Assembly (NCBI RefSeq): GCF_016026235.1
Contig: NZ_CP065613.1
Reading direction: 5' to 3' (one strand)
Length of the DNA stretch: 64,000 bases
Source: Escherichia coli
Lineage (GTDB): Bacteria > Pseudomonadota > Gammaproteobacteria > Enterobacterales > Enterobacteriaceae
Shown: positions 33,068 through 38,226 of the stretch, piece after piece
How positions within the stretch are numbered: the first letter of the stretch is position 1
How the letters are laid out: each line of letters opens with the position of its first letter
The notes under the pieces: generated by a model
What the model saw: only the letters and a program-made list of their open reading frames with translations
Database searches by the model: none
What the model was told of the DNA's origin: nothing
Made by a program: the position numbers and the translations under genes

Positions 33068-35389
33068 ATGAAAAAATTAACCATAGGCTTAATTGGTAAT
33101 CCAAATTCTGGCAAGACAACCTTATTTAACCAGCTCACTGGCGCACGTCAGCGTGTAGGTAACTGGGCTGGCGTTACCGTCGAACGTAAAGAAGGGCAAT
33201 TCTCCACCACCGATCATCAGGTCACGCTGGTGGACCTGCCCGGCACCTATTCTCTGACCACCATCTCATCGCAGACCTCGCTCGATGAGCAAATCGCCTG
33301 TCACTACATTTTGAGTGGCGACGCCGACCTGCTGATTAACGTGGTGGATGCGTCTAACCTTGAGCGTAACCTGTACCTGACGCTACAACTGCTGGAACTC
33401 GGCATTCCCTGCATCGTGGCACTGAACATGCTCGACATTGCCGAGAAGCAAAATATTCGTATTGAAATTGATGCTCTGTCGGCGCGTCTTGGCTGCCCGG
33501 TGATCCCGCTGGTTTCAACCCGTGGTCGCGGTATTGAAGCGCTCAAGCTGGCGATTGATCGCTATAAAGCTAACGAGAATGTGGAACTGGTGCATTACGC
33601 ACAGCCGCTGCTCAACGAAGCAGATTCACTGGCAAAAGTGATGCCTTCCGACATCCCGCTGAAACAACGTCGCTGGCTGGGCCTGCAAATGCTGGAAGGC
33701 GATATCTACAGCCGCGCCTACGCCGGTGAAGCGTCGCAGCATCTGGATGCCGCCCTCGCCCGTCTGCGTAATGAGATGGACGATCCGGCGCTGCACATTG
33801 CCGATGCGCGTTACCAGTGCATTGCTGCCATCTGTGATGTGGTAAGCAACACCCTGACGGCAGAACCCAGCCGTTTCACCACTGCGGTAGATAAAATCGT
33901 GCTCAACCGTTTCCTCGGTCTGCCGATTTTCCTCTTTGTGATGTACCTGATGTTCCTGCTGGCTATCAACATCGGCGGGGCGTTACAGCCGCTGTTTGAC
34001 GTCGGCTCCGTGGCGCTATTTGTGCATGGTATTCAATGGATTGGCTACACGCTCCACTTCCCGGACTGGCTGACTATCTTCCTCGCCCAGGGCCTGGGTG
34101 GCGGCATTAACACCGTGCTGCCACTGGTGCCGCAGATTGGCATGATGTACCTGTTCCTCTCCTTCCTTGAGGACTCCGGGTATATGGCGCGTGCGGCGTT
34201 TGTGATGGACCGTCTGATGCAGGCGCTGGGCTTGCCGGGGAAATCCTTTGTGCCGCTGATCGTCGGTTTCGGTTGTAACGTACCGTCGGTAATGGGTGCA
34301 CGTACGCTTGATGCACCGCGTGAACGTCTGATGACCATCATGATGGCACCGTTTATGTCCTGCGGCGCGCGTCTGGCTATCTTCGCAGTATTCGCGGCTG
34401 CCTTCTTCGGGCAGAACGGTGCGCTGGCGGTCTTCTCGCTGTATATGCTGGGTATTGTGATGGCGGTGCTGACTGGCCTGATGCTCAAGTACACCATCAT
34501 GCGCGGTGAAGCGACGCCGTTTGTCATGGAGTTGCCGGTCTATCATGTACCACACGTTAAAAGCCTGATTATCCAGACCTGGCAGCGTCTGAAAGGCTTC
34601 GTTCTGCGTGCTGGTAAAGTGATCATCATCGTCAGCATTTTCCTGAGCGCTTTCAACAGCTTCTCGCTGAGCGGGAAAATCGTCGATAACATCAACGACT
34701 CGGCGCTGGCGTCCGTCAGCCGGGTGATCACCCCGGTCTTCAAGCCAATTGGCGTGCATGAAGATAACTGGCAGGCAACGGTTGGCCTGTTTACAGGTGC
34801 CATGGCGAAAGAAGTGGTAGTGGGTACGCTCAACACCCTCTACACCGCAGAAAATATTCAGGACGAAGAGTTCAATCCGGCAGAGTTTAACCTCGGTGAA
34901 GAGCTGTTCAGTGCGATAGATGAAACCTGGCAGAGCCTGAAAGACACCTTCAGCCTTAGCGTACTGATGAACCCCATTGAAGCCAGCAAAGGCGACGGCG
35001 AAATGGGTACTGGGGCGATGGGCGTGATGGATCAGAAATTCGGTAGCGCAGCAGCAGCTTACAGCTACCTGATTTTCGTCCTGCTGTATGTACCATGTAT
35101 CTCGGTGATGGGAGCCATCGCCCGTGAATCAAGCCGTGGCTGGATGGGCTTCTCCATCCTGTGGGGGCTGAATATCGCTTACTCGCTGGCAACATTGTTC
35201 TATCAGGTCGCCAGCTACAGTCAGCACCCAACTTACAGCCTGGTGTGCATTCTGGCGGTTATCCTGTTTAACATCGTGGTTATCGGTCTGCTGCGCCGCG
35301 CGCGTAGCCGGGTGGATATCGAACTGCTGGCAACCCGCAAGTCGGTAAGCAGTTGCTGCGCAGCCAGCACCACCGGTGATTGCCATTAA
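33068..35389 (+). CDS. feoB: ferrous iron transporter B (G-protein-coupled permease)
   Basis: Track ORF trimmed to ATG at 33068 ([25 protein letters not shown]..., 773 aa) with an N-terminal GTPase domain and a polytopic membrane domain. Confidence 0.97.
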
Positions 35390-35625
35390 TGGCTTCACTT
35401 ATTCAGGTGCGCGATTTGCTGGCGTTACGGGGCCGTATGGAAGCGGCCCAGATAAGCCAGACATTGAACACTCCACAGCCAATGATTAACGCCATGCTGC
35501 AACAACTGGAAAGTATGGGCAAAGCCGTGCGGATTCAGGAAGAACCTGACGGCTGCCTCTCTGGCAGTTGTAAAAGCTGCCCGGAAGGAAAAGCCTGTCT
35601 GCGCGAGTGGTGGGCGCTGCGTTAA
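35389..35625 (+). CDS. feoC: FeoC (winged-helix, Fe-S) protein
   Basis: Starts at ATG 35389, overlapping the feoB stop (TAATG): [24 protein letters not shown]..., 78 aa, with the cysteine cluster [15 protein letters not shown]. Confidence 0.9.
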
Positions 35626-35650
35626 CCTTACTCCATCGCCTGTTTTGGAA

Positions 35651-35682
35651 AGCCCGGTATGCGTCTGCATCCGGGCTTTTTT
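35651..35682 (+). terminator. Rho-independent terminator after feoC
   Basis: Long stem AGCCCGG...CCGGGCT followed by a run of six T. Confidence 0.75.
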
Positions 35683-35827
35683 GCGTGCGGCTTTCCATAA
35701 AAATGCAACTCTTGCAGCACGGCGTAAGTTCCTTTGAAAGCATCTCGCAGGGATGAAAACTCGCTAATACACAGGTGTGAAGTGGCGCGTAGAGTCGCGG
35801 CATTCAAACAACAGGTGAAGGAACGCC

Positions 35828-36706
35828 ATGAGCAAAAAGCAGAGTTCCACCCCACACGATGCGCTGTTCAAACTCTTTTTACGCCAACCGGACACGGCTC
35901 GTGATTTTCTTGCGTTTCATTTACCGGCACCCATTCACGCGCTTTGTGATATGAAAACCCTCAAGCTGGAGTCGAGCAGCTTTATTGATGACGATCTGCG
36001 TGAAAGCTATTCCGATGTGCTGTGGTCGGTGAAAACGGAACAAGGACCAGGATACATCTATTGTCTGATTGAACATCAAAGCACCTCAAACAAACTGATC
36101 GCATTTCGCATGATGCGTTACGCTATTGCCGCAATGCAAAATCACCTTGATGCTGGATACAAAACGTTGCCGATGGTGGTGCCATTGTTGTTTTACCACG
36201 GTATTGAAAGCCCCTATCCCTATTCGCTGTGTTGGCTGGATTGTTTCGCCGATCCCAAACTGGCAAGGCAGCTTTATGCCTCCGCATTTCCGCTGATTGA
36301 TGTCACCGTCATGCCTGATGATGAAATCATGCAGCACCGACGTATGGCGCTGCTGGAGTTAATTCAAAAACATATTCGTCAACGCGATCTGATGGGGCTG
36401 GTAGAGCAAATGGCCTGCTTATTAAGTAGTGGATACGCTAATGACAGACAAATCAAAGGGCTGTTTAATTACATACTGCAAACCGGCGACGCGGTACGTT
36501 TTAACGATTTTATCGACGGCGTTGCCGAACGTTCACCGAAACACAAGGAGAGTTTAATGACAATTGCGGAAAGATTGCGGCAGGAGGGGGAACAATCCAA
36601 AGCCCTGCATATAGCCAAAATAATGCTTGAATCCGGAGTCCCTCTTACAGACATCATGCGCTTTACCGGGGTGTCAGAAGAAGAGTTGGCTGCGGCGAGC
36701 CAGTAA
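35828..36706 (+). CDS. rpnA: Rpn-family recombination-promoting nuclease (transposase_31-like, PD-(D/E)XK)
   Basis: 292-aa [36 protein letters not shown]...; the N-terminal HDALFK motif is characteristic of YhgA-like/Rpn proteins. Confidence 0.85.
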
Positions 36707-36734
36707 ATTTCTGTCTCGCCATTTCAAAAGTTGC

Positions 36735-38226
<1,492 letters not shown>

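Follow-up and report, generated by a model that had tools for sequence, protein, structure and literature searches.

The rpnA (yhgA) gene between feoC and bioH of Escherichia coli: a nuclease gene with a probable nested antitoxin gene

The rpnA gene and its neighbourhood

We analysed a 64-kb stretch of DNA (the window) and here describe the gene at positions 35828–36706 on its plus strand. In the list of open reading frames, this interval is an ATG-initiated reading frame that encodes 292 aa, and it is a real gene. Its product matches the Pfam family Transposase_31 (YhgA-like, PF04754) over residues 8–209 (E 1.5e-91, 305.9 bits, cut-off 21). Furthermore, the NCBIfam equivalog NF007361, 'recombination-promoting nuclease RpnA', is matched over residues 1–292 of 292 with 695 bits (cut-off 583). 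Several E. coli chromosomes share the 2-kb region around the reading frame with 100% identity and are annotated there as feoB-feoC-rpnA-bioH, and an rpnA match is present in 5424 of the 5426 complete E. coli genomes. Thus, the window derives from a chromosome of E. coli, and the reading frame is rpnA (yhgA).

The gene order in the window is tex (yhgF)-feoA-feoB-feoC-rpnA-bioH-gntX-nfuA-gntT-malQ, with rpnA on the plus strand and bioH on the minus strand. The feoC gene ends at 35625, 202 nt upstream of rpnA, and the stop codon of bioH, which is transcribed convergently, lies 28 nt downstream of rpnA. As rpnA has the same position between feoC and bioH in annotated E. coli genomes, it occupies the orthologous position. 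An earlier note on this DNA, made from the sequence alone, had described an Rpn-family (YhgA-like) recombination-promoting nuclease next to the feo operon; the family assignment and the location are both confirmed here. The gene is already known: its biochemistry was described in 2017 and its toxin–antitoxin architecture in 2023. With a G+C content of 47.8%, rpnA departs mildly from the 52.3% of the whole window, and such a departure is often seen in accessory or defence-type genes. The features of the locus are listed in Table 1.

Table 1. Features of the rpnA locus. Positions are those of the window.
Feature	Position	Strand	Basis
feoC–rpnA intergenic region, with the feoC intrinsic terminator and the presumed rpnA promoter and 5' UTR	35626..35827	+	Terminator-like site
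rpnA (yhgA), full-length CDS; RpnA-L, 292-aa toxic DNA endonuclease	35828..36706	+	Open reading frame, Pfam, NCBIfam, RefSeq annotation of identical DNA, 2 aa from K-12
Transposase_31/YhgA-like domain, aa 8–209, PD-(D/E)XK nuclease core	35849..36454	+	Pfam limits
Key residues	D11 (35858), D63 (36014), E82 (36071), Q84 (36077), R94 (36107), D165 of the PDDE motif (36320)	+	Mutagenesis in PMC5350276
Candidate sigma-70 promoter inside rpnA, for the short rpnAS transcript; ATGACA-17-TTTAAT	36441..36469	+	Position weight matrix (PWM); weak, inferred
Internal Shine-Dalgarno sequence AAGGAG, codons K240-E241, 6 nt before the internal start	36545..36550	+	Read from the sequence
rpnAS, nested in frame, M244–Q292; 49-aa antitoxin RpnA-S	36557..36706	+	ATG with ribosome-binding site, match to 7TH0
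Short GC-rich hairpin over the rpnA stop codon, possible bidirectional terminator	36685..36704	.	Terminator-like on both strands

The spacer upstream of rpnA contains the intrinsic terminator of feoC, with a hairpin at about 35650–35676 and a T-run to 35682. It is followed by two weak PWM promoter candidates (TTGAAA-16-AAAACT at 35734–35761 and TACACA-16-TAGAGT at 35768–35795). Just before the start of rpnA, E. coli and Salmonella share the conserved block GCGCGTAG(A/T)GTC..CATT. A search for known RNA families (Rfam) in and around rpnA gave nothing above threshold. The sole match, to the Burkholderia sRNA Bp2_287 (35647–35780, over the feoC terminator and the region upstream of rpnA), reached 24.7 bits compared to a gathering score of 70 (E 0.007) and is probably due to chance. 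On the other side of the gene, the GC-rich hairpin in the 28-nt convergent junction scores as terminator-like on both strands and may be a bidirectional terminator. The pair rpnA and bioH is included in the ExcludonFinder list of convergent overlapping transcript pairs as an 'excludon' candidate (PMC12288877).

A resident gene, not an active mobile element

The names given to the family suggest a different reading, in which rpnA would encode the transposase of an IS-like element (Transposase_31 or 'ISNCY family transposase'), either domesticated or still active. The Pfam family carries the title 'Putative transposase, YhgA-like', rpn paralogues are annotated in RefSeq as ISNCY family transposase, and a second NCBIfam model of that name matches RpnA with 414 bits, which is under its cut-off of 583 bits. 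In addition, the rpn family is patchy in its distribution and multicopy in some genomes (PMC10400941), and there are many copies in Photorhabdus.

The borders of the gene do not look like those of an element. We compared the 202-nt feoC–rpnA spacer to the 194 nt that follow the stop codon of rpnA and repeated the comparison with 300 shuffles. The best inverted match between the flanks, a candidate for terminal inverted repeats, was 8 nt long and was equalled or beaten in 49% of the shuffles; the best direct match, a candidate for a target-site duplication, was also 8 nt long and was equalled or beaten in 45%. A repeat search over 35300–37300 returned short imperfect pairs only, and the 28 nt between the stop codon of rpnA and bioH leave no room for the end of an element. 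Furthermore, tblastn detected no paralogue of RpnA in the 64-kb window (next best match with E 0.9).

The distribution of rpnA among genomes likewise differs from what the transposase reading would need. In 5424 of the 5426 complete E. coli genomes, rpnA is at this one locus; the median number of megablast places is one for each genome, and of the 5428 places all but one are chromosomal. In Salmonella enterica, the slot between feoC and bioH is also occupied by an rpn gene. Given that inverted repeats and target-site duplications are at chance level, that the gene resides at a single fixed locus and that the slot is occupied in Salmonella too, we conclude that rpnA is a host-resident gene and not a transposon or an active element. 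The earlier note, which saw no inverted repeats or target duplication around the gene and considered it host-retained, was right on both points, and the search for cryptic terminal repeats that it proposed left its view unchanged.

This agrees with Zhong et al. 2023 (PMC10400941), who describe rpn genes as free of terminal repeats and target duplications and hold it very unlikely that Rpn proteins ever function as transposases. For the PD-(D/E)XK fold no autonomous transposase is known, and a transposase function has been rejected by authors who investigated the family (PMC10400941). The transposase reading is thus largely refuted and we give it hardly any weight. The 'domesticated transposase_31-like nuclease' of the earlier note is only partly upheld: the protein is a PD-(D/E)XK nuclease, but an origin from a transposase, for which only the historical Pfam name speaks, is unsupported.

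The nuclease RpnA-L

RpnA of K-12 is an Mg2+-dependent, Ca2+-stimulated and sequence-nonspecific PD-(D/E)XK DNA endonuclease that leaves 3'-OH ends (Kingston et al. 2017, PMC5350276), which can be used by polymerases (PMC5350276). Its over-expression is toxic, induces the SOS response and increases the RecA-independent recovery of recombinants in conjugal crosses (PMC5350276). All three phenotypes are lost in the mutants D11A, D63A, E82A and Q84K, and the mutant D165A is hyperactive (PMC5350276). Reading the sequence of the window allele, we find D11, D63, E82, Q84 (in place of K), R94 and D165 of the PDDE motif all at their expected positions, and residues 1–273 are exactly those of K-12 RpnA. 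The full reading frame would yield RpnA-L, an endonuclease that, when over-expressed, would damage DNA, induce the SOS response and inhibit growth. At the native chromosomal locus of K-12, full-length RpnA-L was undetected under the conditions tried (PMC10400941), and thus the toxin may be barely expressed.

A probable nested antitoxin gene within rpnA

In each rpn gene of E. coli, a promoter and a translation start in the same frame have been reported to lie inside the coding sequence (Zhong et al., PNAS 2023, PMC10400941). In rpnA, the internal start is M244 and its ribosome-binding site lies in codons K240-E241; when K240R, E241D and M244L were combined on the K-12 chromosome, the short product RpnAS was abolished (PMC10400941). 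RpnAS is a protein of 49 aa that forms a dimeric three-helix bundle (PDB 7TH0). Together with RpnAL it assembles into a 74-kDa L2S2 complex in which toxicity, SOS induction and DNA cleavage are blocked (PMC10400941). At alkaline pH, the complex falls apart and DNA cleavage goes up (PMC10400941).

The same arrangement is present in the window. The AAGGAG, the 6-nt spacer and the internal ATG are intact and the same as at the experimentally validated site of K-12. Residues 244–292 of the window protein align with chain A of 7TH0 over all 49 aa (E 2.3e-22), with 47 of the 49 positions identical; the substitutions are T274 for A and V282 for L. The precomputed Pfam label of homologues for the RpnAS region is PF27070 (HTH_Rpn_C). 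We conclude, with a probability of about 90%, that rpnA is a two-product toxin–antitoxin system in the form of a gene within a gene. The earlier note had seen a plain single nuclease gene; the nuclease is correct, but the single product is not, as the internal ribosome-binding site and the start at M244 encode the antitoxin RpnAS.

The proposed mechanism follows the K-12 system. An internal promoter, the Shine-Dalgarno sequence and the ATG of M244, which is in the frame of rpnA, would direct the synthesis of the 49-aa RpnA-S, which has the same sequence as the C-terminal tail of RpnA-L. RpnA-S would dimerise via the helix that it shares with RpnA-L, form the L2S2 complex and block DNA cleavage. 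That RpnA-S of the window allele neutralises its RpnA-L is expected from the near-identical K-12 allele, which has two differences in the shared region. Since T274 and V282 both lie in the shared tail, the toxin tail and the antitoxin change together by construction.

The internal promoter is less clearly visible. An internal transcription start has been reported by dRNA-seq for all rpn genes (PMC10400941). In the window, the best PWM match upstream of the internal start is the candidate listed in Table 1. It has a score of 8.78, which is just under 9.13, the 90th percentile of the best scores per 300 nt in this window. Its 29-mer is kept in the alleles of K-12, JJ1886, WCHEC000837 and Escherichia whittamii. 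A stricter consensus scan found no sigma-70 promoter, neither upstream of rpnA nor inside it. We infer the promoter positions of both rpnA and rpnAS from PWM candidates that score at background level. A literature search for work on RpnL and RpnS after 2023 returned nothing beyond the PNAS paper and a commentary on it.

Comparison to paralogues, relatives and other toxin-antitoxin systems

The closest known system is RpnA/YhgA of K-12 (b3411; 7TH0), which is the same gene at the same locus, feoC-rpnA-bioH, with DNA that is 99.1% identical. It has the same catalytic residues, the same internal ribosome-binding site and start, and the same form of RpnAS with zero extra repeats as the window allele. 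The two proteins differ at residues 274 and 282, which are A and L in K-12 and T and V in the window.

We also compared RpnA to the rpn paralogues, as the earlier note had proposed. RpnB (YfcI), RpnC (YadD), RpnD (YjiP/Q, a pseudogene in K-12), RpnE (YfaD) and the plasmid-encoded RpnP2 likewise combine a PF04754 nuclease with a variable C-terminal HTH_Rpn_C. As in RpnA, the context of the internal start is conserved in the E. coli paralogues (..K-E-x-[LI]-M-T-[IL]-A..), and an RpnS product has been reported for all of them (PMC10400941). RpnB, RpnC, RpnD and RpnE share the architecture of RpnA at other chromosomal loci. The E. coli paralogues differ from RpnA in their sequence, with an identity of just 54–71% over the N-terminal 235 aa, and in the number of 4-aa repeats. 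The antitoxins are specific for their cognate toxins; for instance, RpnBS does not block RpnA (PMC10400941).

A positional homologue exists in Salmonella enterica (GCA_037155365.1, 3501–4427; 308 aa, protein cluster P0071), where the neighbourhood tex-feoABC-rpn-bioH-gntX-nfuA-gntT is the same. This homologue was reached by a protein search followed by a look-up of the contig, and not by the scan of contigs for synteny. That scan, which looked for synteny across genera, retrieved mostly unlinked paralogues (in Photorhabdus, Xenorhabdus, Erwinia and others), and only E. whittamii shared the locus. In the Salmonella gene, the context of the internal start is conserved with RpnA, and parts of the intergenic DNA upstream of the gene can still be aligned. 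However, the protein has only 61–65% amino acid identity to RpnA, compared to 79–98% for FeoA, FeoB, FeoC, BioH, GntX and NfuA. In its N-terminal 235 aa, the protein is no closer to RpnA (67.7% identity) than to the unlinked paralogues RpnB (71.1%) and the gene at the rpnD locus of Citrobacter koseri (76.2%). Furthermore, its RpnS helix is 16 residues (four 4-aa units) longer than that of RpnA. This pattern could be due to rapid divergence, to gene conversion between paralogues or to replacement in situ.

In other species, rpn genes were observed at further positions that are known from E. coli. On a contig of the Citrobacter koseri type, an rpn gene lies between an MFS transporter gene and a gene for a GntR-type aminotransferase regulator, as in mdtM-rpnD-yjiR of K-12. 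In E. marmotae, an rpn gene is found at the locus hisP-rpnB-yfcH. Taken across species, the occupied positions suggest several long-lived chromosomal rpn slots.

Compared to toxin–antitoxin systems in general, RpnA resembles the classical type II, as a protein antitoxin binds the toxin directly. In addition, the antitoxin has its own promoter and is produced in excess (PMC10400941), as in classical type II systems and in intragenic two-product genes. The two designs differ in that classical type II systems have a separate, adjacent antitoxin gene, whereas the antitoxin of RpnA is the toxin's own C-terminal domain, made from an internal in-frame start. As the antitoxin is the in-frame C-terminus of the toxin, toxin tail and antitoxin co-vary automatically. 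Another example of an intragenic two-product gene is that of Cas10d and Cas11d.

Allelic variation of rpnA

The differences between the window and K-12 are unevenly distributed. Across 2079 nt we counted 16 differences, of which 12 fall into codons 187–292 of rpnA and the 28-nt gap that follows (36386–36734). There are none in codons 1–186 of rpnA or in feoB and feoC, and 4 of the 28 nt differ in the gap between rpnA and bioH. Within rpnA itself, eight nucleotides differ; they are confined to the last 320 nt and result in only two amino acid changes, both in RpnAS. This clustering fits the published hypervariability of the C-terminus.

Other alleles of rpnA have a C-terminal cassette that is swapped or extended in 4-aa units. 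For instance, in E. coli WCHEC000837 an insertion of 206 bp directly after G254 (36589/36590 in the window) results in a protein of 297 aa. The insertion brings in a divergent C-terminal (RpnAS) cassette with one extra 4-aa unit (contig piece 1354–1713), and a shortened remnant of the old cassette is retained downstream, with its own ATG and a sequence that resembles a ribosome-binding site. The WCHEC000837-type protein matches a protein cluster (P0003) of 2393 members.

Disrupted alleles were also detected. The coverage of rpnA is below 80% in 763 of the 5424 genomes (14%). In E. coli JJ1886 (NC_022648.1, 3879480–3881121), an out-of-frame deletion of 437 bp has removed the nuclease core (approximately 35905–36341 in the window), and the internal ribosome-binding site and the 49-aa rpnAS reading frame are intact despite the deletion. 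A JJ1886-like pattern with 51% coverage occurs in four of 30 evenly spaced records of the genome listing. In E. coli STEC299 (401–1025), rpnA is annotated without its N-terminus, at a coverage of 72%, and in E. coli CP131_Sichuan (401–2056) an IS1A has inserted near codon 53. In E. whittamii (NZ_JACSQI010000009.1, 3001–5177), some 1.4 kb of DNA interrupts rpnA near codon 216 and contains a 376-aa reading frame (3760–4890) that by eye looks TnpB-like, of the IS200/IS605 type; the rpnAS reading frame is intact at 5028–5177.

From these alleles, it appears that an orphan RpnAS may be retained after the loss of the nuclease half, as in JJ1886. A broader scenario would be that the slot between feoC and bioH is an ancient and fixed rpn slot that predates the split of Escherichia and Salmonella and whose genes have diverged like unlinked paralogues, and that in E. 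coli the nuclease half has been repeatedly destroyed, with the orphan RpnAS kept for a function of its own. Diversifying selection or gene conversion between paralogues could be the cause of the divergence in the slot. If the scenario were true, the orphan RpnAS would be kept, for instance, as immunity against incoming toxins of the RpnA type. However, 83% of rpnA lies upstream of M244, and thus the four disrupted alleles do not prove selection for an orphan antitoxin. We consider this scenario to be rather unlikely. It concerns the locus across strains; the allele in the window is intact and ordinary.

Possible function of RpnA

By analogy with its family, the role of RpnA is likely antiphage defence of the abortive-infection type. 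RpnA-L that is freed from RpnA-S would then act as a nuclease against phage infection, upon a putative trigger. Protection against phages has been published only for the plasmid paralogue RpnP2 and not for chromosomal RpnA (PMC10400941), and the label of a defence system is thus not established for this paralogue. Genes of the rpn family are enriched near defence genes (PMC10400941). In the window, we found no defence island around rpnA, as its neighbours feo, bioH, gntX and nfuA are core metabolic genes. The models of PADLOC v2.0.0, a database of the same year as the discovery of the system, gave no match for RpnA-L or RpnA-S.

The alternative that was proposed in 2017 is that rpnA encodes a housekeeping recombination-promoting nuclease that aids the RecA-independent acquisition of foreign DNA; the small protein would then be a mere regulatory by-product. 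This proposal is in line with the additional RecA-independent recombinants that over-expressed RpnA yields in conjugal crosses, with the polymerase-usable 3'-OH ends (PMC5350276), and with the long conservation of the locus among core genes. Yet the effects on recombination depended on over-expression, and the constructs used also expressed RpnAS, which was not realised at the time (PMC10400941). Furthermore, the reduced allele coverage in approximately 14% of complete E. coli genomes, which includes deletions of the nuclease core and IS insertions, argues against an essential housekeeping role, and the hypervariable C-terminus together with the enrichment near defence genes (PMC10400941) is a better fit to a conflict system. 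We thus regard the housekeeping proposal as improbable and retain the two-product toxin–antitoxin system as our reading of rpnA.

Conclusion

The labels 'Transposase_31' and 'ISNCY family transposase', which Rpn genes carry in databases, are misleading annotation. Inside the reading frame of rpnA, there is very probably a second and functionally opposed product, RpnAS, that is hidden from view, as standard gene calling does not report it.
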